This document shows positions 4,483-18,949 of a stretch of 64,000 nucleotides of DNA, one piece after another. This DNA comes from Candidatus Methanomethylophilaceae archaeon (GTDB taxonomy: Archaea > Thermoplasmatota > Thermoplasmata > Methanomassiliicoccales > Methanomethylophilaceae), in NCBI GenBank assembly GCA_944320495.1, contig CALUHR010000003.1:1-64000 (forward strand). Direction: 5' to 3'. Made by a program: the position numbers and the translations under genes. Under the pieces are notes generated by a model. That model saw only the letters and a program-made list of their open reading frames with translations, was not told where the DNA came from and made no database searches. The stretch's first letter is position 1. Every line of letters starts with the position of its first letter.

Positions 4483-5622
4483 ATGTCTGCTGAAAAAGTC
4501 ACTGTTTCGGTAATCAAGGCCGACGTCGGATCCGTCGTCGGACACTCGAGACCCCACCCCGAGATGCTCCAGGCCGCCAGGGACATCCTGAAGGACGCTC
4601 AGAAGGCCGGGACCATCGAGGACTTCTACGTCACCCGCGTCGGCGACGACATCAACCTGTTCATGTCCCACTACAAGGGCGAGGGCAACAAGGACGTCCA
4701 CGGCGCCGCCTGGGAGTGCTTCCAGAAGGCCGCCAGCATCGCCAAGTCCATGAAGCTCTACGCCGCCGGACAGGACATCCTGACCGACGCCTTCTCCGGC
4801 AACGTCAAGGGAGCCGGACCCGGATCCGCCGAGATGACCTTCGAGGAGCGCGGCTCCGAGCCCATGCTCTTCTTCATGGCCGACAAGACCGAGCCCTCCG
4901 CGTACACCCTGCCCCTGTGCAGGATCTTCCTGGACCCGTTCACCACCACCGGACTCGTCATCGACGCCCGCGCCAAGCAGGGATTCGACGTCGAGATCCA
5001 GGACGTCATCGGCCACAAGAAGGTCACCATGTCCTCCCCCGAGGAGACCCTGAGCATCCTCTCCCTCCTGGGCGACACCTCTAGGTACGCCATCAAGAGG
5101 ATCACCTCCCGCGCCGGCATCGGCCCCGCGTGCGTCGTCTCCACCGACAAGCTCAACCTCACCGCCGGCAAGTACATCGGCAAAGACGACCCCGTCTGCA
5201 TCTGCCGCTGCCAGTCCGGACTCCCGTCCGTCGGCGAGTACACCCAGCCCTTCGTCAACACCATGCTCGTCGCCGGCTGGATGAGGGGATCCCACTACGG
5301 TGCGTTCTACCCCTGCAGCCCCGAGGACTCCGACCCCGTCTACTTCGACGGACCCCCGAGAATCTGCTGCCTCGGATTCCAGCTCAACGAGGGCAAGTTC
5401 CAGGGACTCGAGCCCATGGGCGCCAAGGGCGGAGAGCACATCCCGGTGGACTTCTTCAAGAGCGACACCTTCGACCTGGCCAGGCAGAACGCCGTCAGGG
5501 CGAGCAAGTTCATCAGGAGCCAGGGCCCGTTCATGCCCTCCATCCTCGGTCCCGAGGAGATGGAGTACACCTCCAGGCCCGCCGTGCTCAAGGACCTGAC
5601 CTCCCGCTTCGAGGACCTCTGA
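4483..5622 (+). CDS. fbp: Bifunctional fructose-1,6-bisphosphate aldolase/phosphatase
   Basis: IKADVGS..GH, GDDINL, YAAGQDIL, GNVKGAGPG, ADKTEP, GKDDP, GWMRGSH. Confidence 0.95.
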   Translation: MSAEKVTVSVIKADVGSVVGHSRPHPEMLQAARDILKDAQKAGTIEDFYVTRVGDDINLFMSHYKGEGNKDVHGAAWECFQKAASIAKSMKLYAAGQDILTDAFSGNVKGAGPGSAEMTFEERGSEPMLFFMADKTEPSAYTLPLCRIFLDPFTTTGLVIDARAKQGFDVEIQDVIGHKKVTMSSPEETLSILSLLGDTSRYAIKRITSRAGIGPACVVSTDKLNLTAGKYIGKDDPVCICRCQSGLPSVGEYTQPFVNTMLVAGWMRGSHYGAFYPCSPEDSDPVYFDGPPRICCLGFQLNEGKFQGLEPMGAKGGEHIPVDFFKSDTFDLARQNAVRASKFIRSQGPFMPSILGPEEMEYTSRPAVLKDLTSRFEDL

Positions 5623-6290
5623 TGAAGCATCCGGTCATCATAGTGAACTTCAAGGCCTACAGGGAGGTGGAGGGCGACCGCGCCGTCCGCCTCTCCAGGC
5701 TGATACAGAAGGTCTCGACCGAGAACGGGGTGCCGATGGCGGTGTGCCCTCCGCACCTCTCCCTCGGCGTGGTGGCCAGGATGCTGGAGATTCCGGTCTA
5801 CGCCCAGAGCGTGGACCCCCTCCCTCCCGGCCCCGGCACCGGTTACGTCACCCCGTCGATGCTCCACTGCACCGACGTGAGGGGGACGCTGGTGAACCAT
5901 TCGGAGCACCGCATGCCCCGCGAGGACGTCGGTAGGGCCGTCGAGATGTGCAGGGACGTCGGACTCGACGTCTGCGTCTGCGCGGAGGACACCGCCGAGG
6001 CGGCGTCCATGGCCGAGTTCCATCCCGCCATGATCGCCGTGGAGCCACCCGGACTCATCGGAGGGGACGTGTCGGTCACCACCGCGGACCCGGCCATCGT
6101 CTCCGGCACCGTCGACGCGGTCATCGCCGTCGACCCGGAGATTGCGGTCTACTGCGGCGCCGGCGTGAAGACCGGAGACGACGTGCGCACCGCCATGGAC
6201 CTCGGAGCCCACGGCGTGCTCCTGGCGTCCGGGGTCGTCAAGGCCAAGGACCCCGAGGCAGTCCTCAGGGACCTCATCTCCAAGATCTGA
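5622..6290 (+). CDS. tpiA: Archaeal triosephosphate isomerase
   Basis: IVNFKAY, LVNHSEHR, AVEPP.LIG, GVLLASGVVKA; TGATG overlap with fbp. Confidence 0.95.
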   Translation: MKHPVIIVNFKAYREVEGDRAVRLSRLIQKVSTENGVPMAVCPPHLSLGVVARMLEIPVYAQSVDPLPPGPGTGYVTPSMLHCTDVRGTLVNHSEHRMPREDVGRAVEMCRDVGLDVCVCAEDTAEAASMAEFHPAMIAVEPPGLIGGDVSVTTADPAIVSGTVDAVIAVDPEIAVYCGAGVKTGDDVRTAMDLGAHGVLLASGVVKAKDPEAVLRDLISKI

Positions 6291-6328
6291 GGGGCAGAGC
6301 CCCCTCTCAAACGATTTCCTTCTGCGAT

Positions 6329-6351
6329 CAAATCAGGGAGTGGGGACCATC
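6329..6351 (+). repeat. attL core (CAAATCAGGGAGTGGGGACCATC)
   Basis: Identical to 15352-15374. Confidence 0.9.
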
Positions 6352-7592
6352 CTTATCCATCATTCCAAAAATTTGGGAACTTAACCAGTCCATCCGACCG
6401 CTTAACCGTTTATGCTTCCGATACCCCCGCCCCGTATCCATCCTCTACGAATCCAGCTAAGTCCCGCAAACCGAGCTTCTCCGGGGACTGGTTCGGCGAA
6501 TGGCGCTACGACCGCAAGGAGCTCCGTTCCGACCTCGCCAATGGGAGGATCCACCTGAAGAACCGCAGACACCAGCAGAGATTTCTGGACTGGTTACGCG
6601 ACGAGCAGATGATAGTCTTCCAGGACATGAAAACCAGAGAGAAGGTCTACAGCCCCGTCTGCCGTCGTGGAAACCGTCAGTATGCGATGAAGAAGGCAAG
6701 GCAGCGCGATTTGTTTCTGGAGGCATTCAGAACCAAGGAGCTGGACCGCCAAATCGGTAGCAACCCAAACGTCCGGGAGACCTGCGCTCTGCTGATCACT
6801 GTGACCTTCGACAAGAAGAGGTACACTATGGAGGAGGCGTGGGGTATGCTCTCGTCCACGGAGATTCCCGAGTCCAACCTCAAGACAGGGGTACTGAACA
6901 ACCTGACGGCCAACCTTCGGGACATATTCGGACCCCTGTGCAAGATCACCGTCAAGGAAGCCCAGGAGGACGGCTATCCTGCGCCGCATCTGATTGTTCT
7001 CCTCGACAATCCGACGACAGTCAGACTCCATCGTGGCAAGGGAGGTCAGTCATGGCGCATCTCCGATCCTCGCACGCTCAGACGCATCGGCAAGGATCCT
7101 GCACTCCGCAGACTGTCCAGAATTCGCCACGCCGATGCGATCTCTCTGAATCCCATCTGGAAGTACGGATTCATAGACGTGCAGGGCATCGTGAAGGGAT
7201 ACCGCTTCAAGAATCGCAAGGATGCCGTCAGCTACGCATACAAGTATCTCACGAAGTCCCTGACAGACGACCATGGCAGGGAGCTCGAGGGCCTCGATTC
7301 GATCTCCGAATGCAGCACCAAGAGCCTCCGCATATCTCTCTGGGGACATCTCTGCAACAAGTCCTACAGCCTGAGGGACATAACATACGGGAGGAAGGTC
7401 AAGGAGTTCCTAGGCATGCTGCCTGCCGAGAGCATCGATAAAGACGATACGGTAGAATCTAGATGGACGTTCATGAGAACGATTCCCTCGTTCGTCTATG
7501 AGAAGATCGTCATGTGGAATGCCAGAAAGATGCTACGCCCTTTCAGATCCACACCAAAGACCTCCGACACCAATCCGTTACCCTATCTCTGA
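6330..7592 (+). CDS. Rolling-circle replication initiator (HUH Rep); frame open from attL, no ATG/GTG/TTG until 6609
   Basis: Motif 1 LLITVTFD, motif 2-like EAQEDGYPAPHLIVLL, motif 3 YAYKYLTKS. The frame is open and protein-like upstream of ATG 6609. Confidence 0.8.
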   Translation, partial: KSGSGDHPYPSFQKFGNLTSPSDRLTVYASDTPAPYPSSTNPAKSRKPSFSGDWFGEWRYDRKELRSDLANGRIHLKNRRHQQRFLDWLRDEQMIVFQDMKTREKVYSPVCRRGNRQYAMKKARQRDLFLEAFRTKELDRQIGSNPNVRETCALLITVTFDKKRYTMEEAWGMLSSTEIPESNLKTGVLNNLTANLRDIFGPLCKITVKEAQEDGYPAPHLIVLLDNPTTVRLHRGKGGQSWRISDPRTLRRIGKDPALRRLSRIRHADAISLNPIWKYGFIDVQGIVKGYRFKNRKDAVSYAYKYLTKSLTDDHGRELEGLDSISECSTKSLRISLWGHLCNKSYSLRDITYGRKVKEFLGMLPAESIDKDDTVESRWTFMRTIPSFVYEKIVMWNARKMLRPFRSTPKTSDTNPLPYL

Positions 7593-7631
7593 TTCCTTTT
7601 TTGGATTGCCTCTATCATACATAGCCGTCAG

Positions 7632-7854
7632 GCTGCGCTCCGTCCGTCCCACCCCTTCTGCCCGGACGCCCCACGATCATACATCTGGTCTTCTCTACCT
7701 CCTGCTGTCCCAAGCGGGCGGGCAGGCGCCCCCACAGCCGCATGGCAGGGGGCGCGCCCGCACGCCATGGAGCCGCGAAGCGGCGACCGTGCCCGAGCGG
7801 AGCGAGGGCACAGGGGCCGGAGCGTCAGCGTAGGCCCCCAGGACGGAGCGCAGC
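7632..7854. other. Putative replication origin (sso/dso-like structured region)
   Basis: 14-bp perfect inverted repeat 7632-7645/7841-7854 enclosing a GC hairpin 7718-7761 and several AGCG motifs, directly after rep. Confidence 0.55.
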
Positions 7855-7920
7855 GACGTCCCGACTTGATGGAGAGAACGTGAGTTAAAAGTATGAACTA
7901 TTGTTACATTCCCTGTATTG

Positions 7921-8916
7921 ATGAGCAATGCCACCCCCGTCCAAAATGGATTCTTATTTCAGGATTGCTCTGCTATTGTATTATTTTTTGATCACATCAA
8001 AGATGTCAAATCATTCAGGGTCGAAGGTCAAAAAGAAGATATTGAATTCGAGCTTAATGATGGGTCGTTTATATATTCACAATCAAAATACTGTTCGAAA
8101 GATCTCCAAAAAACCAAAGCCAAATCCATTTTTCAAGACGCACTGCGCACGCTATCTTTAGCTGATTCTGAAAAATGTAGCGGTCTTGTCTACACTACCA
8201 ATATCATCTTACCATTCGGTCCTAAAACACCGTCCGTAGATTTTGGTCACCATGATTATTGCATTGATTACTCAAATCTATCCCAGGACAGTAAAAACAT
8301 AATTGATTCGATAATTGAGACAAAGCAACTGCTTCTAGATCGCTCTAAATTATCTATCCGTATAATAGCCTTTCAAGAATCGGACCTCCAGCATACAAAT
8401 AGCGTTGTTTACCAAAACATCAATCGTTTCCTCAATAAATTGGGTAACAGATTTCGGTTTGATGAAGAGAAGATAATGTCTCTTTTTATGGATATTATCA
8501 GCTATAATAAGAATAACAGAGATTTATCTGCACAGATATCAAAACATAATATTATCTGGATTCTGATTGATTATCTAATGTCTACGGTTGATCCAGGTTT
8601 TGATCACTTAGATCCTGCCTTGAGATACGAAGTTGAATCGAAATATGAGGAACTTATCTCAATTTATGTTGAACGTATACAGTATACAACAGCAATATTG
8701 TACGATTACAAGGAGTGGTGTAAAGACCGCTCCATCACTGCTGAAACAGTACAGGATTTTGTTACGACAAACTGGAAACACTATTCTTCTGAATTTGATT
8801 CAGATACTATAGACTTTGAAACTTTGAAGGCCTTGACAATTATAATATTGTCAAAAATATTGACTCTGAGATATATAATTGAAGACATAAAGGGCGTGGC
8901 GGGAATTGTGGATTAA
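7921..8916 (+). CDS. Lamassu/ABC-3C-type effector with N-terminal Cap4-like PD-(D/E)xK nuclease (LmuA-like)
   Basis: NATPVQNGFLFQ...EGQKEDIE...SQSK N-terminus; overlaps the following SMC-like ATPase; very AT-rich. Confidence 0.6.
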   Translation: MSNATPVQNGFLFQDCSAIVLFFDHIKDVKSFRVEGQKEDIEFELNDGSFIYSQSKYCSKDLQKTKAKSIFQDALRTLSLADSEKCSGLVYTTNIILPFGPKTPSVDFGHHDYCIDYSNLSQDSKNIIDSIIETKQLLLDRSKLSIRIIAFQESDLQHTNSVVYQNINRFLNKLGNRFRFDEEKIMSLFMDIISYNKNNRDLSAQISKHNIIWILIDYLMSTVDPGFDHLDPALRYEVESKYEELISIYVERIQYTTAILYDYKEWCKDRSITAETVQDFVTTNWKHYSSEFDSDTIDFETLKALTIIILSKILTLRYIIEDIKGVAGIVD

Positions 8917-10405
8917 ACATATATGCATTGAAGAACCCCCAAACAAAAAGGAGTTTACATTTCACCCAGGCATTAATTTAATTCACAGTCACAATAACTC
9001 ATACGGCAAAACAACGTTGCTTCGTTTTATTTTATATGGACTTGGATTCACAATTCCAAACTTAGAAAAACTTCACATGGAACAATGTTTCGTCACTATA
9101 ACAGTTATTCATGGAGATAGAACAATTATCATCAATAGACATGAATCTGACATCTCTGTTGAGGAATTTAATGAAAAGACATACTATCGCACTCCACGCG
9201 AGTTGATGGCAGCAAGATCGAAAATCTTTAACTCCGATAACAAGCAACTTTTAGAGTCAATTCTTGGAGCCATGTATATAGACCAGGAACGTGGCTGGAC
9301 TCTACTTAATCGCGGAAAGGTAATAGGTTCAAATGAATTTCAGATTGAATCGTTCCTTAATTCAATAGCCAAGGACGATGTTGAATCTTTAATTATTGAA
9401 AAAAATAAACTCAGCAGAGAACTTGAGAGGTATAAACAACTACTTACGTTATCGGACAGACAGAGAACAATCGATGACTTTGATAAAAAAAGAATCAACC
9501 TTTCTGAAATTGAATCTGTACAGACATCTTTGGATTCTCTAAATATCCAATTGAGATCGTTAAAAAAAGAAGAAAAACGTATCAAAGAATCAATAAAGGA
9601 TAATAAAAAATTCATTGATTATATTGATCAAATGAAATTGGTTATAAAAGTTGGTGGCGAGATTATTCCATTGACCCATGACATGATCGTAACATGTCCA
9701 GATAATATGAGTTTCCTTGAAGCTCGTCTTGAAGTAACCCGGATGTCGATTTCTAAAATAACTGAAAAAATGATCAAGACTGAATCCGAATTAAACAAAT
9801 TATTGGATGAAAAAAAGTCTGATGAAATTATAGAAGCTTACTCTATAATACCAATTTCTAAAATCAATATCGATTCTGAAAAAATTCAATCTTCCATTAA
9901 CTTAATGAAAAACAGATTATCGATTTTAAATAAACAAATTGAATCAGCTCAAGATAAAACAAAAATTACAACTAAATTAGATTCACTAATATTGAGAAAT
10001 GCTGACGAACTTAATGTCTCACAATACATACAAAATGCTTCCAGACCTCTTTGCAAAATAGAAAAATTAAAAGGGTTCTCGGGTACAAAGTACAGAAAGG
10101 TCATACTTTCATATAGATTGGCTTATGCTTCATTGATTGAAGAAGTTGAAAAACTCACACTTCCACTAATAATAGACTCCCCTTCAGGTGAAGTGGATGA
10201 TACAAATCTCAGCGAAATGGTAAACATATTCCCCAAACTGTACTCCCATCATCAGGTCATCATTGCCTCGATAGATAGTCTCGACTCTCTTGAAAAAGAC
10301 ATGACCATTGAACTCAACACAGAAAACAAGCTGATTGATGTCCGGAAGGATGAAAATTTATTGGACGTTTTTTTAGATAAGACCGGCAACTATAAACCGG
10401 TCTAA
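8906..10405 (+). CDS. SMC/Rad50-like ABC ATPase (LmuB-like)
   Basis: Walker A NNSYGKTT, coiled-coil middle, FSG signature, Walker B LIIDSP; TTG start. Confidence 0.75.
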   Translation: MWIKHICIEEPPNKKEFTFHPGINLIHSHNNSYGKTTLLRFILYGLGFTIPNLEKLHMEQCFVTITVIHGDRTIIINRHESDISVEEFNEKTYYRTPRELMAARSKIFNSDNKQLLESILGAMYIDQERGWTLLNRGKVIGSNEFQIESFLNSIAKDDVESLIIEKNKLSRELERYKQLLTLSDRQRTIDDFDKKRINLSEIESVQTSLDSLNIQLRSLKKEEKRIKESIKDNKKFIDYIDQMKLVIKVGGEIIPLTHDMIVTCPDNMSFLEARLEVTRMSISKITEKMIKTESELNKLLDEKKSDEIIEAYSIIPISKINIDSEKIQSSINLMKNRLSILNKQIESAQDKTKITTKLDSLILRNADELNVSQYIQNASRPLCKIEKLKGFSGTKYRKVILSYRLAYASLIEEVEKLTLPLIIDSPSGEVDDTNLSEMVNIFPKLYSHHQVIIASIDSLDSLEKDMTIELNTENKLIDVRKDENLLDVFLDKTGNYKPV

Positions 10406-10419
10406 CACTTCTGTAGTCT

Positions 10420-10830
10420 GTGCAGAAAACTCCTGAACAGATCCATTACAATATGTCTCGTATCCGTTGCAAGGACACCAAAATTGAAGTGGAACTCAGA
10501 AAAGAGCTCTGGTCTCGTGGACTCCGTTATCGTAAGAATGTTAAAAACATCCCAGGTAAACCAGACATCGCATTCATTGGAAAGAAGATTGCCGTATTCT
10601 GTGACAGCGAATTCTGGCATGGTTACGATTGGGAACATCGTAAGAACGATATCAAAACCCGCAGAGAGTTCTGGATTCCCAAGATTGAGAAGAACATACA
10701 AAGAGATTTAGAAGTGAACCAGCTACTGGAAGAACAGGGTTGGATTGTCCTGAGATTCTGGGGAAAGGAAATCCAGAAGAATCTCTCAGGCTGCGCGGAT
10801 AGGATAGAAAAGGTGGTGAGAGAAAGATGA
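10420..10830 (+). CDS. vsr: Very short patch repair endonuclease
   Basis: MSRIRCKDTKIE, PGKPDI, FCDSEFWHG, FW.PKIEKN.QRD, GW.VLRFW. Confidence 0.92.
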   Translation: MQKTPEQIHYNMSRIRCKDTKIEVELRKELWSRGLRYRKNVKNIPGKPDIAFIGKKIAVFCDSEFWHGYDWEHRKNDIKTRREFWIPKIEKNIQRDLEVNQLLEEQGWIVLRFWGKEIQKNLSGCADRIEKVVRER

Positions 10831-11906
10831 CGGCCAAATTCAAGTCCATAGACCTCTTCGCAGGGATAGGCGGAATCCGCATGGGATTCGACAGAGCCTT
10901 CGGCGACGAAATCGAAACAGTCTTCGCCAGCGAATGGGATTCCTACGCGCAGCAAACCTACAAGGCCAACTTCGATACTCCCGAAGAGATCAACGGAGAC
11001 ATCACCAAGATCGACGAGAAGGACGTTCCCGACTTTGATATCTGTCTTGCTGGATTTCCCTGCCAGGCATTCTCCATCGCCGGAAAAAAACAGGGATTCA
11101 ACGATGATTACAAAGGAATGTCTCGCGGAACTTTGTTCTTCGACGTTGTAAGAATCTGCGATCTCCACAGACCCAAGGTAATTTTCTGTGAGAACGTCAA
11201 GGGTCTGACGATTCATGATAAGGGGAGAACCTTCGACGTGATCATCAACACTCTGAAGAATATGGGATACACGCCGCTTTATAAGGTTCTGAACAGCAAG
11301 GACTACGGTGTCCCTCAGAACAGGGAGCGTATCTACATCGTAGCTTTCAGGAATGACATAGACTGTTCTGGATTCCAGTTCCCTCAGCCCACCAACTCCA
11401 AGACATGCATCGCTGACATCATGGAAAAGGATCCGGTTTCGGTCAAATACTATCTGAGCGACGTGTATCTGGAGACCCTCAGAAAGCACAGAGCGAGACA
11501 CGAGGCTGCTGGCCATGGATTCGGGTATGAAATCAAAGATCTCGACGGAGTTTCCTCGGCTCTTGTCTGCGGAGGCATGGGACGGGAGAGAAACCTAGTT
11601 ATCGACGACCGCCTTACCGATTTTACCCCGATTACTCATATCAAAGGCAAAGTTAACCGCGAAGGCGTCAGGAAGATGACCCCTCGCGAATGGGCCAGAC
11701 TTCAGGGATTCCCCGACGACTTTAAACTTGTATTATCCGATACCCACCTCTACAAACAGTTCGGCAATTCGGTAACCGTCCCGGTAATCGAAGCCATTGC
11801 AAAAGAAGTCAGGAGGACTTTGGATGGGGATAACAAGGGGGAATTCGGGGGAGTGGTCGGAACCGTACGTTCTGCTCAGTCTGCTCTCCGAGGGTCGTAT
11901 ATATGA
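10827..11906 (+). CDS. dcm: DNA (cytosine-5) methyltransferase
   Basis: DLFAGIGG, AGFPCQAFS, ENVKGL, PQNRERIYIV, YKQFGNSV. Ends at 11891 if CGA is a stop. Confidence 0.95.
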   Translation: MTAKFKSIDLFAGIGGIRMGFDRAFGDEIETVFASEWDSYAQQTYKANFDTPEEINGDITKIDEKDVPDFDICLAGFPCQAFSIAGKKQGFNDDYKGMSRGTLFFDVVRICDLHRPKVIFCENVKGLTIHDKGRTFDVIINTLKNMGYTPLYKVLNSKDYGVPQNRERIYIVAFRNDIDCSGFQFPQPTNSKTCIADIMEKDPVSVKYYLSDVYLETLRKHRARHEAAGHGFGYEIKDLDGVSSALVCGGMGRERNLVIDDRLTDFTPITHIKGKVNREGVRKMTPREWARLQGFPDDFKLVLSDTHLYKQFGNSVTVPVIEAIAKEVRRTLDGDNKGEFGGVVGTVRSAQSALRGSYI

Positions 11907-13125
11907 TGCCGATGGGAATCTCAACATTATAAAGGAAGTATGGCATGACATAAGTTCGGTCATCTTCAAACAGGATTCCAAAGATAAAGTAGGTTCTCTC
12001 AGATATGATATCAATCTGGACAAGAAGACCGTTGATGTCTATCTGAACGGCAATCATCTGATACGCATTTCACGTGAAGAATGCAGAAAGTACGCAGAGG
12101 GGCTTCGCGATGCCATCAGAAACTCGCACAGCTCTAAAGGTACAATCGACATAGACCGTTCCTACTCGGATTACCTCAGATCCATAGGCCGTAATGCTCT
12201 AAAGGCCAGCAGCAAAGACACTCCCGACATCTGGCTGAATATGCCAGATGTCCGCAACACATCGAACAAACCCCTTGGATTCAGCATCAAATCCCGTTTG
12301 AGCAATCATCTGCCTACGATTTTCAACAGCAGCGGAGCATCAAACATCATCTATGAGATTACTGGAGACGTTACCGATGAGAAAATCTCCGAGCTGATGA
12401 AAATGGTAATCGCACACGGTTCGTCTGGTGAAGAACACGACCGCAAATTCGTCTATCCCAATTATCCGCTCCGCATCAAGACCTTCAAAGACATGGGTCT
12501 GGGTCTGAAATACCACAGTGCGGAATCATTAAAGACGGAAGACGACGGAGGCATACTGTTCAAAGGAACTGACCCGTTTGAGAAGAATCTCCTGATGATC
12601 GATTACTGCATGCCCCAGATACTGGCCGATATGACCGCGGAGGCCTACTTCAACGGTGTGATGAACATATCCGATCTCGTCAGAATTCTTGACGGTAAAG
12701 ACAGATTCGGCGTGAATCCATCCGAATCATACCCGTTCTACAAAAAGAAGGTTCAGGACATGCTGGTTGCGATGACCACATCCATGACCGCTGCAAAGAT
12801 ATGGGATGGCACCGAAGGTACCAACGGCGGTCTGATTATCGTGAAGGAGGACGGAGATATCGTTTGTTACCACATCTTCGATCGCAACGATTTCAGAGAG
12901 TTCCTGCTAAACAACATGAAATTCGAGTATCCGGACAATTCCAGATACTTCTCTACGGGAATCATCGAGAATCACGGGAAGTACTTTATGAGCCTGAACG
13001 TGCAGATCCGTATGGGCCAGAAAAAGAGGAAGGGCTCTTCCAGGCAGTCGGAAGGTTACTACGACATCGATGCGGGCAGGTATCTGGACAAGAGTCCGAT
13101 AGAGGAGAAGACCGTTTGGTTCTGA
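11824..13125 (+). CDS. Type II restriction endonuclease, HpaII-like family
   Basis: N-terminus GNSGEWSE.Y...L resembles the HpaII family; adjacent to a C5 MTase and vsr. Recognition site not determined. Confidence 0.7.
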   Translation: MGITRGNSGEWSEPYVLLSLLSEGRIYDADGNLNIIKEVWHDISSVIFKQDSKDKVGSLRYDINLDKKTVDVYLNGNHLIRISREECRKYAEGLRDAIRNSHSSKGTIDIDRSYSDYLRSIGRNALKASSKDTPDIWLNMPDVRNTSNKPLGFSIKSRLSNHLPTIFNSSGASNIIYEITGDVTDEKISELMKMVIAHGSSGEEHDRKFVYPNYPLRIKTFKDMGLGLKYHSAESLKTEDDGGILFKGTDPFEKNLLMIDYCMPQILADMTAEAYFNGVMNISDLVRILDGKDRFGVNPSESYPFYKKKVQDMLVAMTTSMTAAKIWDGTEGTNGGLIIVKEDGDIVCYHIFDRNDFREFLLNNMKFEYPDNSRYFSTGIIENHGKYFMSLNVQIRMGQKKRKGSSRQSEGYYDIDAGRYLDKSPIEEKTVWF

Positions 13126-13131
13126 CAGTCT

Positions 13132-13701
13132 ATGTCAAAATTTCCACAAACCGATAACAAACCCCTTCATTCAACCATCAGACACCAGTTGAAGGTCTCC
13201 AAACTCCACCGCATTACGAGAGAGGACATGGTTAAACTGGATTATTTTAGACGTCAGGTGTTCTCACTCGGAGAGAAACACCGTCAGTTATGGTCCAAGT
13301 ACAACTTCTTTAACATATCTGGGTACACTGATCCCAAGATATGCGAAAAGTACGGTACTCAGGCAGCATCAGAAATGTGTTGTTTGTATGAAGACTGGCT
13401 CGGACTCCGGAGAGAGATAGAACAATTCCTGGAACTGAAGGATCTCCCCATGACCTATGACGAACATGTATGGTCAAGACCGTATGTGGTCTCATCTTCT
13501 GGAACCATGAAGTACGACGGCACCTACGTGACAACGGGATTCGATTCGGGACCGGCAAAATGGTGCGAGATAACCCTGGATGGAATGACGAGCAAGATGC
13601 ATTCCCGTCGTCACCTCCAAAGGATTGAGCAGTATTCGATAGCTGGCTTTGCTACAGGTATTATCGGAATAGTGCTTTCGTTGGTGATGTTCTTTTACTG
13701 A
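13132..13701 (+). CDS. Hypothetical protein with C-terminal TM helix
   Basis: 189-aa ORF ending IAGFATGIIGIVLSLVMFFY. Confidence 0.6.
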   Translation: MSKFPQTDNKPLHSTIRHQLKVSKLHRITREDMVKLDYFRRQVFSLGEKHRQLWSKYNFFNISGYTDPKICEKYGTQAASEMCCLYEDWLGLRREIEQFLELKDLPMTYDEHVWSRPYVVSSSGTMKYDGTYVTTGFDSGPAKWCEITLDGMTSKMHSRRHLQRIEQYSIAGFATGIIGIVLSLVMFFY

Positions 13702-13706
13702 TTTCT

Positions 13707-14054
13707 TTAACGCTTCTCTTTTTCCAACTTCTCCGCACGGGCCTTCCTATCTTTGGCGTATTCCTCCTCGGCCATGCGAAGACGCTCTTCCGGATTAAGA
13801 TCCTGCTCCATCGCCTCTTCCATATGGTCTTCTTCATAGGATATCAAACGGTTACGGATGTCCTGAGATTCAAGATCGAACCCATAGTAAGAGCGAGTCC
13901 TCTTTCTAAGGATGACCTCCCCGTTATGCACATGCCACTCTACGATATCTTCGCCCTTTACCAACTCCAGCAGCTCGGCTATCTTGATACTACATGTGAT
14001 GCGCCCATAGTTGTCGTACTTGGATTCTCCGACTTTCACCATTTTAACCATCAT
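13707..14054 (-). CDS. AbrB/MazE-like DNA-binding regulator
   Basis: SKYDNYGRITCSIKIAELLEL.KGEDIVEW.V.NGEVILRK fits the swapped-hairpin fold; divergent from the integrase. Confidence 0.6.
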   Translation of the reverse strand: MMVKMVKVGESKYDNYGRITCSIKIAELLELVKGEDIVEWHVHNGEVILRKRTRSYYGFDLESQDIRNRLISYEEDHMEEAMEQDLNPEERLRMAEEEYAKDRKARAEKLEKEKR

Positions 14055-14130
14055 TGGCAACGTTGCCAAATAATTTAATATATGGTTGGCAATATTGGCA
14101 ATAATGAATCAAATTGCCGTAATTGCCAAT
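14054..14130. promoter_or_regulatory. Operator array (six TGGCAA/TTGCC half-sites) in a divergent promoter
   Basis: Palindrome TTGGCAACGTTGCCAA 14054-14069, tandem TTGGCAATA x2 14086-14103, two reverse copies, TATA-like TTAATATAT between them. Confidence 0.6.
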
Positions 14131-14355
14131 GAAGGTAGCACACACATTCCTGAGTCTGGAACCGCGCATCCAGATCACACATCCGACCTCTTCACAAGAA
14201 CCAACAGAGCCGCGCACATCAGTGCACTGGGCATCTTCCTGAGGAACTTCCCTCTAGAGGTGTTCGACGACAGCGAGAGATCCTGGTTCCTCGCATTCGA
14301 GTCCAGGGTCTGCAGAATGGAATCCGAGGCCTTCGACGACCTTGGACTGGAGTGA
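14104..14355 (+). CDS. Small ORF upstream of the integrase (possible excisionase/regulator)
   Basis: ORF whose TGA abuts the integrase GTG; no recognisable motif. Confidence 0.3.
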   Translation: MNQIAVIANEGSTHIPESGTAHPDHTSDLFTRTNRAAHISALGIFLRNFPLEVFDDSERSWFLAFESRVCRMESEAFDDLGLE

Positions 14356-15318
14356 GTGGCAACCATGGCAAAGGGCAACTACTCTGGAATATCTTGCATC
14401 AACGAGCACATTGCCAACACCTACAGGAGGTCGAAGGAAGAGACCTCCTCGAAGTACCGCGGAGTCCTCTACCAAATCAACGGCGATCTTCAGCAGAACG
14501 GATACTCCACCAACCCCCGCGAGTTCGATGAGGAAACAATCGAGTTCCTCTTGGGACTCTGGAAGGAGCGCGACCTCGCGGTGTCCACCAAGAACTGGTA
14601 CCTGCACATCCTGAGAAGATACCTCGCCTACTTCCAGAACGACGTTGTGGAGCAGATGGGCGTGGACTTCGGCCAGGACGTCCGCCCCAACGTCAACTGG
14701 CTCTCTGACGAGCAGGCCGAGCAGCTCATGGACATGGAGAAGACTCCTCTCGAGGAGGTCGTCATCCACCTGGAGCTCTGCCTCGGCCTCAGGATTGTGG
14801 AGGTATGCAGGCTGCGCCTCACTGACATCCACTTCGACGAAGACCCCCGCAAGTGCTATGTCTCCGTCCGCGGGAAAGGCAAGGGGGACGGCAAGTGGAG
14901 AAGCATCCCGTTCCACCCAGACTCCAAGGAGGTCTTTAGGCGCTGGATTGCCAGACGCAACGAGATCATCGCCAGGATGCACGAGTTCGACCCCTCGTGG
15001 AAGGTTCCCGATGAATTCCTGATCTGGTGCCACTACGACAACCGCCCCTCCGCTGGACGCTATACCGAGAGAGGTCACAGCCTCGACCGCGCAGTTATCC
15101 ACAAGGTCCGCGACCGTGCCGGATTCGAGTTCTCCAATCACACTCTCAGGAGGACATTCGGCCGCACGCTCTACCGTGCCGGCATCCCGATCGAGACGAT
15201 TTCCAAGCTCTACGGCCATGATGACGTCAAGACAACCATCCGTTACCTCGGGATTGACCTCGACGACATGGGCTCCGCCCTTGCCAGAATGTACGAGTAC
15301 CAGTACTCCAGGAGATGA
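14356..15318 (+). CDS. Tyrosine recombinase/integrase (XerA-like)
   Basis: CLGLRIVEV (R), GKG (K), HTLRRTFGR (HxxR), LYGH...TTIRYL (H, Y). Confidence 0.95.
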   Translation: MATMAKGNYSGISCINEHIANTYRRSKEETSSKYRGVLYQINGDLQQNGYSTNPREFDEETIEFLLGLWKERDLAVSTKNWYLHILRRYLAYFQNDVVEQMGVDFGQDVRPNVNWLSDEQAEQLMDMEKTPLEEVVIHLELCLGLRIVEVCRLRLTDIHFDEDPRKCYVSVRGKGKGDGKWRSIPFHPDSKEVFRRWIARRNEIIARMHEFDPSWKVPDEFLIWCHYDNRPSAGRYTERGHSLDRAVIHKVRDRAGFEFSNHTLRRTFGRTLYRAGIPIETISKLYGHDDVKTTIRYLGIDLDDMGSALARMYEYQYSRR

Positions 15319-15351
15319 TCAGGTGACCCCCTCAAACACGGTCCCCGAACC

Positions 15352-15374
15352 CAAATCAGGGAGTGGGGACCATC
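15352..15374 (+). repeat. attR core
   Basis: Identical to 6329-6351; lies within the inverted repeat GGTCCCC...GGGGACC (15340-15371). Confidence 0.9.
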
Positions 15375-15550
15375 ACTTCCGAAACGCTGCCGGCCCGATG
15401 GTATGGAAATCCTGTACCAAGCCCGGCTTTGATCGGCCATACACCTTTCATCGATTCCCTGCAGATGCCTGAAGCAGACTACCTCTGGCATGCTCGTATG
15501 AGTAGCCTCGAAACATTTTTCTCCGATGCGCGGGAACCGCCCGCGAGAGC

Positions 15551-16750
15551 ATGACCCCGAGACAATGGCTTCCTCTGATCGCGATAGTCATATGCGTATT
15601 CATCGTGAACATGTCGGAGTTCATGCCGATCGGTCTTCTGACCGACATCGCGACCGATTTCGACATCTCGGAGTCCAAGGCGGGTCTGCTCATATCGTTC
15701 TACGCCTGGGCGGTGGCGATCCTCTCACTTCCGATCATGCTTCTACTCCGCAAGATGGAGTACCGCAGGATGTTCCTGATGACCATAGCCCTCTTCGCGT
15801 TCTTCCAGATCCTGTCGGGGATCAGCAGCAGCTACGGGATGCTCATGGCCTCCCGCATCGGTGTCGCCGTCGCTCACTCGATCTTCTGGTCCATAGCCAC
15901 CCCGCTCGCGGTCCGCGTCGTGCCTCCAGAGCTGCAGAAGCTCGCGCTCAGTGCGGTGGCGACCGGTACGTCCGTGGCCATGATCGCCGGACTCCCCCTG
16001 GGGAGGATCATCGGCCTGGCGCTCGGCTGGAGGATGACTTTCATCGTCATCGCCGTGGTCTCGATCGTCGCGCTGGTGCTGCTGATCTTCGTCTTCCCCA
16101 GGCTGGAGAACCCCGGGACCTTCACCCTCAGACGCCTCCCCGGCCTCCTGAGCAACAGGGTGCTCATCGGGATCTACGTTATGCTCGCCATCTACGTCAC
16201 CGGCTACTACACCGGATACAGCTACATCGAGCCCTTCCTGCAGCAGATCGCCGGATTCTCCGAGACGATGACCACCGTCGCGCTGACCGTGTTCGGAGCG
16301 TTCGGGATCGTGGGCAGCATCCTGTTCACCAAGTTCTATGACAGGACCAGGTTCAGGTTCATGATCATGGCCCTGCTCGGGGCGGCGGTCTGCCTCCTTC
16401 TCCTGAGACCGTCCGTCGTCTCGATGCTCCTCGTATTGGCGGTATGCGCCTTCTGGGGGCTCTTCGCCACATGCTTCAACGTGGCATTCCAGAACGAGAC
16501 GCTCCGCGCGTCGCCCGAGGACGGGACCGCGATTTCGATGTCGTTGTTCAGCGGCATATTCAATGTCGGGATCGCCAGCGGTTCGCTCATCGGAGGATGG
16601 GTCACAGACTCCTCCGCCGGCGTGGGTTCCATCGGATTCGTCGGAGCTGCCTTCGTGATCGTGGCGGCGGCCATAACCGCATTCTATCTGATCAGGAAGA
16701 TGAGGATCGCCGACGGGGAACGCGCGAAGCGGCTGGCAGAGATCCGCTGA
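15551..16750 (+). CDS. MFS transporter (SotB/NepI-like efflux)
   Basis: SEFMPIGLL..IA.DF N-terminus, about 12 hydrophobic segments. Confidence 0.9.
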   Translation: MTPRQWLPLIAIVICVFIVNMSEFMPIGLLTDIATDFDISESKAGLLISFYAWAVAILSLPIMLLLRKMEYRRMFLMTIALFAFFQILSGISSSYGMLMASRIGVAVAHSIFWSIATPLAVRVVPPELQKLALSAVATGTSVAMIAGLPLGRIIGLALGWRMTFIVIAVVSIVALVLLIFVFPRLENPGTFTLRRLPGLLSNRVLIGIYVMLAIYVTGYYTGYSYIEPFLQQIAGFSETMTTVALTVFGAFGIVGSILFTKFYDRTRFRFMIMALLGAAVCLLLLRPSVVSMLLVLAVCAFWGLFATCFNVAFQNETLRASPEDGTAISMSLFSGIFNVGIASGSLIGGWVTDSSAGVGSIGFVGAAFVIVAAAITAFYLIRKMRIADGERAKRLAEIR

Positions 16751-16801
16751 CGGTGATCCGACTTCATCACACGGTGTCGGCATACCGCATAGTTTAATAA
16801 T

Positions 16802-16815
16802 TGAACAGTTGTTCA
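16802..16815. promoter_or_regulatory. ArsR/SmtB-type metal-repressor operator
   Basis: Perfect 6-2-6 palindrome TGAACA-GT-TGTTCA just downstream of a TTTAATAA box and upstream of a heavy-metal efflux operon. Confidence 0.65.
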
Positions 16816-16835
16816 TTTGTTCAAGTGAGAAAGCC

Positions 16836-17060
16836 ATGAAAGCCGTACTCAAGCTCGAAGGCCTGTGCTGCGCGAACTGCGCGGCGAAGATAGAGAACGC
16901 CGTACAGAAGATCGATGGTGTCGAAGAGGCCAACCTCTCGTTCATGACCCAGAAGCTGACCATCCAGGCTCCGGATTCCGAGATGGACCGCATAATCGAG
17001 GAGGCCTCCAGGATCGCCAAGAGGATCGAAGCCGAGGTCGTCGTGAGAAGGCTCAAGTGA
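16836..17060 (+). CDS. Stand-alone heavy-metal-associated (HMA) domain protein
   Basis: GLCCANCA motif, 74 aa. Confidence 0.9.
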   Translation: MKAVLKLEGLCCANCAAKIENAVQKIDGVEEANLSFMTQKLTIQAPDSEMDRIIEEASRIAKRIEAEVVVRRLK

Positions 17061-17065
17061 TCCCG

Positions 17066-18949
17066 ATGCGCACGATTGAGAAGAGACTCATCGGAGGGGG
17101 CGTCCTCTTCGCAGTGGGCCTGGTCCTTCACTACGCCGCCGATTCGCCCGGATGGATGGAACTGGCGGTCCTCGGCGCCTCGTATCTGATCATAGGCTAC
17201 GACGTGCTCCTCAAAGCCGTTCGCAACATCGGACACGGGAACTTCCTCGACGAGAACTTCCTGATGTCCGTCGCCACCCTCGGGGCCTTCGCCATACATA
17301 TGTATCCCGAGGCGGCCGCCGTCATGCTGTTCTATCAGGTGGGGGAGTGGTTCGAGGACCGCGCCGTCAACCGCACCAGGAAGTCCATCTCTGACCTGAT
17401 GGACATCCAGCCCGAATCCGCCCGCGTCATCAGGGACGGGAAAGCCGAGACCGTTGATCCCGAGGAGGTGTCCGTCGGAGAGACCATAGAGGTCCTCGCC
17501 GGCGAGAGGGTCCCGCTGGACGGGACCATCCTGGAGGGATGCTCCTCCCTGGACACGAAGGCCCTCACGGGGGAGTCCGTGCCGAGGGATGTCGCCCCCG
17601 GTGATGAGGTCGTATCGGGGACCGTCAACCTGTCCGCGAAGCTCACCGTCCGGGTCACCAGGGAGTACGAGGACTCCACCGTAGCCAAGGTCCTGGAGCT
17701 CGTGGAGGACTCGGTCTCGCGGAAAGCCCCCGCAGAGAGGTTCATCACGAGGTTCGCCAGGTACTACACGCCGGCTGTCGTGGCCGCCGCCGTCATCATC
17801 GCGGTGGTTCCCCCGCTGTTCGGTCAGGACCTGGTGACCTGGGTGTACCGCGCACTCACTTTCCTGGTGGTCTCATGCCCCTGCGCCCTGGTGATCTCCG
17901 TGCCGCTGAGCTACTTCTGCGGGATCGGGGCCGCATCCAGGATGGGCGTCCTGATCAAGGGGGCCAACTACCTGGAGGCGCTCTCCAAGGTCCACTCCGT
18001 GGTGTTCGACAAGACCGGCACCCTCACCCAGGGCCGCTTCGAGATCTCCAAGGTCCATCCCGTGGGATCCGACGACAGAATGTTGATAGACGTCGCGGCG
18101 GCCGCCGAATCCGCCTCCAACCACCCGATCTCCGCCTCCATCCGTAGGGCCGGCAGCGGTTCCGTGGACACGTCATCGGTGGAATCCGCGGAGGAGGTGG
18201 CCGGGATGGGCATCCGTGCCAGGATCGACGGGTCCGATGTGCTGGTAGGTAACCATCGTCTGATGGAGAGCCACGGCATCGGATACTGCGACGAGGAGGT
18301 GGCCGGGACCAACGTCCACGTAGCCCGCGACGGAAGGTACCTCGGACACATCGTCGTCTCCGACGTCGTCAAGGAGGACTCCCGCGAGGCCGTGTCCCGC
18401 CTCAAGGACATGGCTGTGGAGCGTACGGTGATGCTTTCCGGTGACTCCTCGAGGATCTGCCTGGACATCGGATCCCTGGTCGGGATAGACGAGGTCAGAT
18501 GCGAGCTCCTGCCCGGGGACAAGACGGACGAGCTCGAGCGCATAATGTCCGAATGCCCTCCCGGACGCAAGGTCGCGTTCGTGGGGGACGGCATCAACGA
18601 CGCGCCGTCCCTCGCCAGGGCCGACATCGGCATCGCCATGGGCGCGCTCGGGTCGGATGCGGCGATCGAGGCGGCGGACGTGGTCATAATGGACGACGCG
18701 CCTTCGAGGATCCCGGCATGCATCGGATTGGCCAGGAGGGTCAACCGCATAGTCGTCCAGAACATCGTCTTCGCGCTGGCGGTGAAGTTCGGGATAATGG
18801 TCCTGACCCTCGCGGGCCATGCGGACATGTGGCTTGCCGTCTTCGGCGACGTGGGGGTCTCCATCCTGGCCATCCTCAACGCCATGAGGTGCCTGAGGTC
18901 CGCAGAACCTCCTGCGGCCGCCCCCGCGCCCGTGCCGGATGCGGCCTGA
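17066..18949 (+). CDS. cadA: Zn/Cd/Pb P1B-type ATPase (CadA/ZntA)
   Basis: LTGES, SCPCALVIS, FDKTGTLT, HP, VGDGINDAP. Confidence 0.95.
   Translation: MRTIEKRLIGGGVLFAVGLVLHYAADSPGWMELAVLGASYLIIGYDVLLKAVRNIGHGNFLDENFLMSVATLGAFAIHMYPEAAAVMLFYQVGEWFEDRAVNRTRKSISDLMDIQPESARVIRDGKAETVDPEEVSVGETIEVLAGERVPLDGTILEGCSSLDTKALTGESVPRDVAPGDEVVSGTVNLSAKLTVRVTREYEDSTVAKVLELVEDSVSRKAPAERFITRFARYYTPAVVAAAVIIAVVPPLFGQDLVTWVYRALTFLVVSCPCALVISVPLSYFCGIGAASRMGVLIKGANYLEALSKVHSVVFDKTGTLTQGRFEISKVHPVGSDDRMLIDVAAAAESASNHPISASIRRAGSGSVDTSSVESAEEVAGMGIRARIDGSDVLVGNHRLMESHGIGYCDEEVAGTNVHVARDGRYLGHIVVSDVVKEDSREAVSRLKDMAVERTVMLSGDSSRICLDIGSLVGIDEVRCELLPGDKTDELERIMSECPPGRKVAFVGDGINDAPSLARADIGIAMGALGSDAAIEAADVVIMDDAPSRIPACIGLARRVNRIVVQNIVFALAVKFGIMVLTLAGHADMWLAVFGDVGVSILAILNAMRCLRSAEPPAAAPAPVPDAA

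Follow-up and report, generated by a model that had tools for sequence, protein, structure and literature searches.

A family of small integrative plasmids of Methanomassiliicoccales with a probable att-split replication initiator gene

Element ends and the interrupted rep gene

The DNA analysed here, referred to as the window, is a stretch of 64,000 nucleotides from Candidatus Methanomethylophilaceae archaeon (assembly GCA_944320495.1, contig CALUHR010000003.1, positions 1 to 64,000 of the forward strand). Within it lies a 9-kb element with a gene for a replication initiator-like protein (rep) at its left end and a tyrosine integrase gene (int) at its right end, flanked by exact 23-nt direct repeats, CAAATCAGGGAGTGGGGACCATC, at 6329-6351 and 15352-15374. 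An exact 23-mer pair within 64 kb is not a matter of chance. Between the repeats the order is a Rep-like open reading frame (ORF), GC-rich inverted repeats, about 5 kb of low-GC cargo, a 189-aa ORF, a minus-strand 120-aa gene, an 83-aa ORF (orf83) and the integrase. The window likely holds an integrated copy of a family of small integrative plasmids of Methanomassiliicoccales, in which the attachment (att) site splits rep and excision rebuilds it. The features on which this reading depends are as follows.

6329..6351, plus strand: attL core, 23-nt exact repeat; the same core terminates intron-bearing tRNA-Tyr genes in 24 related loci
6330..6497, plus strand: Rep leader, 56 codons, predicted to be disordered (AlphaFold2 predicted local distance difference test score, pLDDT, below 50 for residues 1-56), with no ATG, GTG or TTG
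6498..7592, plus strand: folded Rep body, probable HUH-like rolling-circle initiator, stop at 7590-7592; two conserved helices at about 6513-6599 lie before the first ATG
6609..6611, plus strand: first canonical start for rep in the integrated state, inside the predicted strand of residues 93-99
14356..15318, plus strand: tyrosine integrase, intact when integrated (PF00589, E=7.6e-20; phrog_1; 97% identity to the integrases of the related contigs L001 and L002)
15310..15320, plus strand: Shine-Dalgarno (SD)-like sequence AGGAGATGATC, within the final int codons and overlapping the int stop
15323..15351, plus strand: detached start of rep, a GTG and nine further codons (M-T-P-S-N-T-V-P-E-P), with the first base of the core completing the last of them
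15323..15472, plus strand: orphan ORF remaining in the chromosome, 49 codons to the TGA at 15470-15472 in the standard code
15352..15374, plus strand: attR core, 23-nt exact repeat

At the left end, an open rep frame extends from 6291, immediately 3′ of the tpiA stop codon, to 7592, and its first ATG, GTG or TTG is the ATG at 6609 (M6609). This leaves 93 codons of rep without a canonical start, and no SD-like sequence was found 5′ of M6609; the leader at 6330-6497 cannot be translated from the chromosome via a canonical start. The core is read in this frame as K-S-G-S-G-D-H. The tpiA stop itself (TGA, 6288-6290) shares the frame of the rep ORF in the window and likewise in a closely related host (L059, described below), so that a TPI-Rep fusion would result from read-through of the stop; the shared frame is probably a coincidence.

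At the right end, int closes with TCC AGG AGA TGA. The sequence GGAGATGAT at 15311-15319 overlaps the int TGA (15316-15318), and a GTG (15323-15325) begins 4 nt after that stop. The longer AGGAGATGATC would be expected to pair with the archaeal anti-SD sequence as generally known, the assembly itself lacking a 16S 3′ end. As the int stop lies 33 nt 5′ of the core, the att site is outside the int ORF in the window, and among the related loci the int stop overlaps the core in L010 only. Joining 15323-15351 to 6329-7589, as in an excised circle, gives 1290 nt, or 430 codons in frame. A preliminary description of this DNA, made from the sequence alone, had proposed that joining 15352 to 6329 yields a 430-aa rep ORF; this was reproduced, and its coordinates for the repeats, the Rep frame, the SD-like sequence, the GTG and the junction were all correct. 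It had also read the CGA at 15380 as the stop of the orphan ORF. The codon (15380-15382) does occur there in frame, but in table 11 it specifies Arg. A role for CGA as a stop codon is not supported: the genome has a tRNA-Arg(TCG) gene elsewhere (C13:413317-413390) and a frequency of about 3 CGA per 1000 codons in long ORFs, counted after filtering to sense-like ORFs because the unfiltered count was contaminated by antisense ORFs. In-frame CGA is missing from 10 of the 11 genes at 4489-18946, the single occurrence being in the foreign dcm gene; genome-wide the codon is rare but present.

A natural circle and the int-rep junction

The excised form has a natural counterpart. The contig L002 (ENA ERZ16268202 scaffold_12273) contains a single att core and has a 99-nt terminal overlap, which identifies it as a closed circle of about 18.5 kb. 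In this circle int (7137-8090) is followed after 4 nt by a GTG at 8095, from which one ORF runs through the core into rep and ends at 9327. Its Rep (P0008) is 85% identical to the window Rep over the full length and 91% over the body from M6609. The same junction, int followed after 4 nt by rep, is found in L001 and L007. The called Rep proteins of L001 (P0028, representing a cluster of 155 sequences) and L002 begin with the N-terminus M-T-P-S-N-T-V-P-E-P encoded by the detached 5′ end in the window, and that of P0028 is exactly the one predicted in the preliminary description.

An integrated element on a chromosome contig of 656 kb (L004) matches L002 at 99.9% identity over 10.3 kb, so the same element is seen both circular and integrated. 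Aligned with the window, L002 6464-8152 corresponds to 13692-15380 at 91.5% identity and L002 8257-9626 to 6522-7892 at 87%, and the alignment breaks exactly at att.

Conservation of the open frame across the family

A search with the frame 6330-7589 returned 57 relatives, many of them 410-438 aa long with 97-100% query coverage, some with as little as about 40% identity to the window Rep. A further 121 loci came from genome and metagenome scans; those on genome contigs are almost all in Methanomassiliicoccales assemblies, and the metagenome contigs among them carry no taxon names. Viral contigs (IMG/VR) scanned with the Rep alignment yielded no relatives. Across 45 rep genes with a core at most 450 nt upstream, the span from the core to the conserved domain was open in the rep frame in 40, against 6 of 90 controls taken from the two other forward frames over the same span. 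Among the 42 genes with 38% or more Rep identity to the window, the frame was open in 40. Different lineages read the core in three different frames, as K-S-G-S-G-D-H, Q-I-R-E-W-G-P or N-Q-G-V-G-T; the peptide encoded by att is therefore irrelevant, and it is the read-through that matters.

The start next to int varies together with the frame. Seven integrated elements were excised in silico and considered with three int-rep contigs; an eighth excised element (L012), with a truncated int, a degenerate attR core and no in-frame start, was kept outside the count. A start codon overlapping the int stop or within about 15 nt of it, open to the core and in the element's own rep frame, was present at 9 of 10 junctions (7 of 8 independent arms), compared with 5 of 20 non-cognate frames. 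ATG and GTG are scarce further downstream: among the 1230 leader codons of 26 representatives less than 70% alike there are 1 ATG and 2 GTG, whereas the two codons number 46 among 2408 codons when this DNA is read off-frame and 231 among the 7889 codons of the Rep body. Of the Val codons, 2 of 40 are GTG in the leaders and 78 of 418 in the body. Together, the frame co-variation and the depletion of start codons appear to speak to selection.

Proposed mechanism and its main alternative

In the mechanism proposed here, the circle would carry orf83, the tyrosine integrase gene and rep head to tail. Rep would start at the GTG 4 nt after the int stop, behind the SD-like sequence in the last int codons, and the ORF would continue through attP, which mimics the 3′ end of tRNA-Tyr, and a disordered leader of about 56 codons into the HUH-like domain. 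Recombination by Int at the core would leave the start codon, the SD sequence and the operon promoter at the right end of the integrated element and the remainder of rep at its left end, which in most hosts follows a tRNA gene and here follows tpiA. In the integrated state, about 9 kb separates the remaining rep from its start codon, the SD-like sequence and the orf83-int unit, all of which lie downstream of it. Full-length Rep therefore has no coding sequence in the chromosome, from which presumably no functional Rep would be made. Excision would restore rep and couple Rep synthesis to translation of Int. The stops and starts of orf83, int and rep abut, and L002 has a conserved copy of the module; the three genes are therefore probably co-transcribed. 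GTG 15323 probably serves as the start codon, with Rep translationally coupled to Int. An integrated rolling-circle replicon must not fire within the chromosome. Replication of unexcised ICEBs1 kills its host (PMC3715440); by analogy, the benefit would be that the host is spared rolling-circle initiation in its own chromosome.

These parts differ in strength. The natural circle, the conserved arrangement and the frame co-variation are observed, as is the division of the frame between the two ends of the element, and the split geometry as an account of rep is very probably right. The structural proposal of the preliminary description, that att parts rep from its start codon, is borne out by the circle, the open frames, the frame co-variation and the conservation upstream of M6609. 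That the arrangement acts as a switch, with Rep off in the integrated state, is a reading that the sequences only somewhat favour.

The best-surviving alternative accepts the geometry as real and treats it as a by-product of compaction and translational coupling in an int-rep operon. Rep would then still be made in integrated copies, either from an internal start (TTG, GTG or a non-canonical codon) or by way of read-through starting at the upstream tRNA or tpiA promoter. We consider this unlikely, yet a number of observations lean towards it and weigh against a strict switch. TTG is not depleted in the leaders (21 of 1230 codons). Several lineages have a TTG, GTG or ATG in frame between att and the folded domain, and in many a TTG or another start is found in frame 43-104 nt past the core; through such an internal start an integrated copy could make a complete Rep domain in several lineages. 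The leader is disordered and variable, and its low Met and Val content may simply be the composition of a disordered segment. Over the leader/folded-domain border L002 has a 60-nt in-frame deletion relative to the window (L002 8147-8257 against window 6352-6521), with the loss of 20 residues, so that this part of Rep appears to be dispensable. Finally, relatives at tRNA-Ser(GCT), with about 40% Rep identity, and Reps only 24-27% identical at tRNA-Tyr have their own start 3′ of att.

Against a mere by-product stand the near absence of ATG and GTG from the leaders, the 93 codons of the window copy without a canonical start and with no SD-like sequence before M6609, and the fact that integration severs rep from the int operon even in relatives with their own ATG. 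In the tRNA-Ser(GCT) group (L021, L023, L024, L033 and L097) that ATG lies about 90 nt past the tRNA. The integrase of L097 is about 22% identical to that of the window, and no integrase match was found in the examined parts of the other four. Since relatives that lack the split start downstream of att, the split ORF is best seen as a derived feature of one clade; the circle order int-attP-rep appears to be universal across the wider Rep family. The fullest form of the excision-dependent reading, to which we attach even weight for and against, holds that Rep is strictly tied to excision by translational coupling across attP, that ATG and GTG were purged from a disordered spacer of about 55 codons, that the arrangement was kept or re-invented in all three core frames, and that this would be the first initiator found as an attP-bridging gene.

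The tRNA-Tyr target and the site of the window copy

At 24 related loci the left flank carries a tRNA-Tyr(GTA) gene, which has an intron of 33-36 nt and ends in the core. The core consists of the final 21 nt of tRNA-Tyr(GTA), including CCA, followed by TC. In Methanomassiliicoccales the intron of this tRNA is at position 38 (for example L003:9961-10074 and G000:C13:59181-59292, the latter also L050:1410-1521). With default settings ARAGORN detected no tRNA either in the window or at 13 related loci, and nothing came from Rfam at gathering scores; ARAGORN with intron search, together with reading of the flank by eye, recovered the tRNA-Tyr(GTA) genes that the defaults had missed. Att sites in tRNA-Tyr thus look intergenic because default ARAGORN and Rfam miss the gene. 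Some database proteins begin with MFSEENPIQPLKSAGPLF... ('MFSEENPIQ...'). These N-termini were considered as host-provided starts and ruled out, as they are the translated tRNA-Tyr intron and 3′ exon and hence gene-caller artefacts. In several loci (L004:700-21275, L019, L010 and L062) two or three different members of the family lie in tandem behind one tRNA-Tyr, giving hybrid int(A)-att-rep(B) junctions, some of them frame-mismatched.

No tRNA was found at the window attL, even with the intron search. The sequences thus indicate that the usual target of the family is the intron-bearing tRNA-Tyr gene and that the window copy occupies a secondary site after tpiA, a further point on the unfavourable side for an excision-controlled Rep. 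The host genome has its own tRNA-Tyr on contig C13, where the core differs from the att core by 1 nt; there is no second Rep in the window's genome, and none near the C13 tRNA-Tyr. In a very close host (L059:1-7124, OJMH01006201.1; TPI 99% and MFS 98% identical) a different, decayed element is found at the same tpiA-MFS site, with a Rep 71% identical to that of the window, a truncated int and no attR core. Because L059 carries a different element there, tpiA-MFS is regarded as a standing secondary att site in the host lineage. An empty tpiA-MFS site was sought in 20 relatives: MFS was found in 4, with no tpiA within the 1.5-kb flank and no core.

These observations raise the possibility that the window copy is a stranded or decaying secondary-site insertion in which nothing is switched. 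The absence of a tRNA at attL, the 1-nt difference and lack of a nearby Rep at the host's own tRNA-Tyr, and the decayed element in the related host all fit such a history. But the two 23-nt cores are identical, int and rep are intact, and the int module retains 91.5% DNA identity to that of the natural circle, and we think it quite unlikely that the copy is a relic.

The Rep protein

Conservation in the Rep alignment reaches back some 36 residues from M6609 and takes in an invariant Trp (W88). The AlphaFold2 model has a mean pLDDT of 80, with residues 1-56 disordered and pLDDT 86-96 from residue 57 onwards. Helices are predicted at residues 62-70 and 79-90, and M6609, residue 94, falls within the strand of residues 93-99; according to the model, a Rep begun at M6609 would be without both conserved helices. 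Between the window and L005, the differences 5′ of M6609 number 9, 11 and 21 at codon positions 1, 2 and 3. The preliminary description had pointed to conservation upstream of M6609 as informative, and it is present both in sequence and in the predicted fold.

Some database homologues of 324-332 aa do start near the equivalent of 6609, a pattern that the preliminary description had thought would speak against a split gene. They do not refute it: they come from integrated copies in which the upstream frame is still open, such as P0018, the copy in L006 beside tRNA-Tyr, and from their sequence context they are gene-caller truncations. It is accordingly highly improbable that the upstream frame is a chance or gene-caller artefact, with Rep starting at or near M6609 and att in a non-coding leader: the short homologues and the lack of predicted structure in the first 56 residues would suit that view, but it is opposed by the origin of those proteins, by the open rep frame (40/45 against 6/90 controls) and the start codons that co-vary with it, by the conserved helices and W88 upstream of a methionine that is itself inside a strand, and by the excess of third-position differences from L005.

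Within the otherwise variable leader, the motif [D/N]-L-T-[S/C]-T-T recurs in the window (6375-6392) and in L004, L009, L013, L026 and P0026, which span the two main frame classes. TTG frequently encodes its Leu, and this accounts for the enrichment of TTG in leaders. The motif may have a role in the peptide, or it may be a DNA site, for example an arm site for Int.

The identity of the folded domain was assessed by profile and by structure. The window protein matches PF23343 (REP_ORF2-G2P) at 17 bits (E 0.007), below the gathering threshold of 27.8 bits; 15 of 20 aligned Rep homologues match the family at E<=0.01, the best at 5e-7. The top VIA fold matches are all HUH Reps or transposases, led by SIRV1 ORF119 (Z 6.2, root-mean-square deviation 3.4, 114 residues) and Helitron (Z 5.8), and followed at Z 4-5 by Vientovirus, AAV5, RepB and nanovirus Reps; these are middling scores. 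Foldseek against the PDB gave nothing at E<=0.001, the best E-value being 0.05. HUH Reps are marked by a His-hydrophobic-His motif II and by a catalytic Tyr in motif III; the alignment contains a single invariant His, in G-Y-P-A-P-H followed by two hydrophobic residues, and an invariant Y..K-Y-L.K (Y302, K305, Y306). It is likely, though not proven, that Rep is a HUH-like rolling-circle initiator.

Comparison with known systems

Neither this plasmid family nor an att-split Rep was found described in a literature search. The claim of novelty in the preliminary description was nevertheless too strong, as coding sequences (CDSs) that bridge attP (PMC7911831) and the SNJ2 operon (PMC13107129) precede it. 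The closest known layout comes from viruses of salt-loving archaea, whereas the element here is an integrative plasmid of a gut methanogen. In the haloarchaeal pleolipoproviruses Halfvol1, Halfgib1, Humcor1, Harhisp1, SNJ2 (orf26) and HRPV-9, a CDS that starts from the int end and contains attP is present in the circle alone (Dyall-Smith et al. 2021, PMC7911831 section 3.7). As in those viruses, the start lies near the int end on the same strand, here with GTG 15323 4 nt past the int TGA, and attP lies within a CDS that is whole in the circle and split on integration, the single core of L002 being inside the rep ORF. Theirs is a short variable protein, HopBA1-like in the case of SNJ2 orf26, whose CDS ends at a gene for a CxxC protein (PMC7911831), whereas the bridging CDS here is a Rep of 410-430 aa, with no CxxC gene after it, on a small plasmid of Methanomassiliicoccales. 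The novelty lies in the replication initiator itself being the gene that bridges attP, and in the different archaeal order and kind of element.

In SNJ2, excision builds a replication operon that contains the integrase gene; the bridging orf26 is expressed, all genes of the operon are needed, and the authors state the idea of a link between genome topology and activation (NAR 2026, PMC13107129). The two systems share the union, on excision, of int with replication genes from the other end of the integrated element, and the replication functions of SNJ2 are confined to the circle (PMC13107129). They differ in that the Rep gene of SNJ2, ORF19, is intact and sits at the far end of an 11-gene operon with its promoter inside int (PMC13107129), whereas here the Rep ORF itself is cut. 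ORF19 encodes Rep-Arvir, a TBP-like Rep_trans-type catalytic domain fused to a MarR-like winged helix-turn-helix domain (PMC13107129). The best fold matches of the present Rep are to HUH Reps, and Rep_trans and MarR structures are absent among the 50 best VIA matches and the Foldseek matches, both of them comparisons by structure.

Other elements share single aspects of the arrangement. In Tn916, integration likewise parts a promoter from DNA-processing and replication genes and excision rejoins them, but this bacterial system works by transcriptional separation through a promoter and an antiterminator, with no ORF across the junction (PMC11658703 and work cited there). In mycobacteriophage BPs and its relatives attP is also inside a gene other than int and integration also alters the encoded protein; their repressor loses its 3′ end, which gives the active form in the lysogen (PMC4557955), whereas rep loses its 5′ end with start and SD. 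The 'suicidal' integrases of the SSV1 type offer another archaeal gene split by the integration of its own element (PMC7253208, PMC8371274); there it is int that is split, whereas here int remains whole, its end lying 33 nt before the core. In this respect the integrase resembles those of Class II (pNOB8/lambda-type, non-suicidal), with a Phage_integrase domain and an int gene that survives integration; the attB at a tRNA 3′ end that goes with this class is absent for the window copy and present in relatives (24 tRNA-Tyr(GTA) loci).

Known safeguards against replication from the integrated state are repressors or the parting of a promoter from its genes, as in Tn916 and SNJ2; here the safeguard would sit in the reading frame of the initiator. 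A conserved family, a natural circle and frame co-variation together provide more comparative support than is available for the bridging ORFs of haloarchaea. The loci also define a widespread and undescribed plasmid family in methanogens of gut and rumen, hosts for which genetic tools are scarce, and the attP/Int/tRNA-Tyr module with the candidate replicon is a resource for vector building. For annotation there is a warning, as rep genes of integrated copies are called truncated or are given N-termini translated from a tRNA intron.

Other features of the element

The remaining features of the element are as follows.

7632..7854, no strand assigned: GC-rich inverted repeats 3′ of rep, with a 14-nt perfect inverted repeat and inner stems; 87% alignment to circle L002
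7918..13125, plus strand: low-GC cargo, with PDC-M46A and PDC-M46B (LmuB-like ATPase) as a candidate defence pair, Vsr, a Dcm methylase and a HpaII-type restriction enzyme
13707..14069, minus strand: 120-aa gene divergent from the int operon, 97% identity to a 115-aa gene of circle L002
14104..14355, plus strand: orf83, whose stop abuts the int start; 94% identity to L002 6876-7124, with the same gene order in L001 and L002

The inverted-repeat region at 7632-7854 may be the replication origin. Two genes of the low-GC cargo, at 7918-10405, match a PADLOC candidate defence pair (PDC-M46A, E 7e-67; PDC-M46B, E 7e-123), and the second of them also matches LmuB ATPase models. Pfam and PHROGs searches of the element showed no virion genes. 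The 120-aa gene, which the preliminary description had labelled AbrB-like, had no match in a Pfam search.

Between this gene and orf83, the segment 14040-14130 contains several copies of TTGGCA/TGCCAA and an AT-rich, TATA-like stretch, and it is likely the control region of the orf83-int(-rep) unit. A bacterial-type promoter scan, uninformative for an archaeon, recovered only the TTGGCA repeats. In the wider family, a 1.6-kb contig (L129:1-1618, Ga0307378_10271846) has a 122-nt terminal overlap. Its sole coding content is a distant Rep homologue (27% identity), and the contig may represent a minimal circular replicon.

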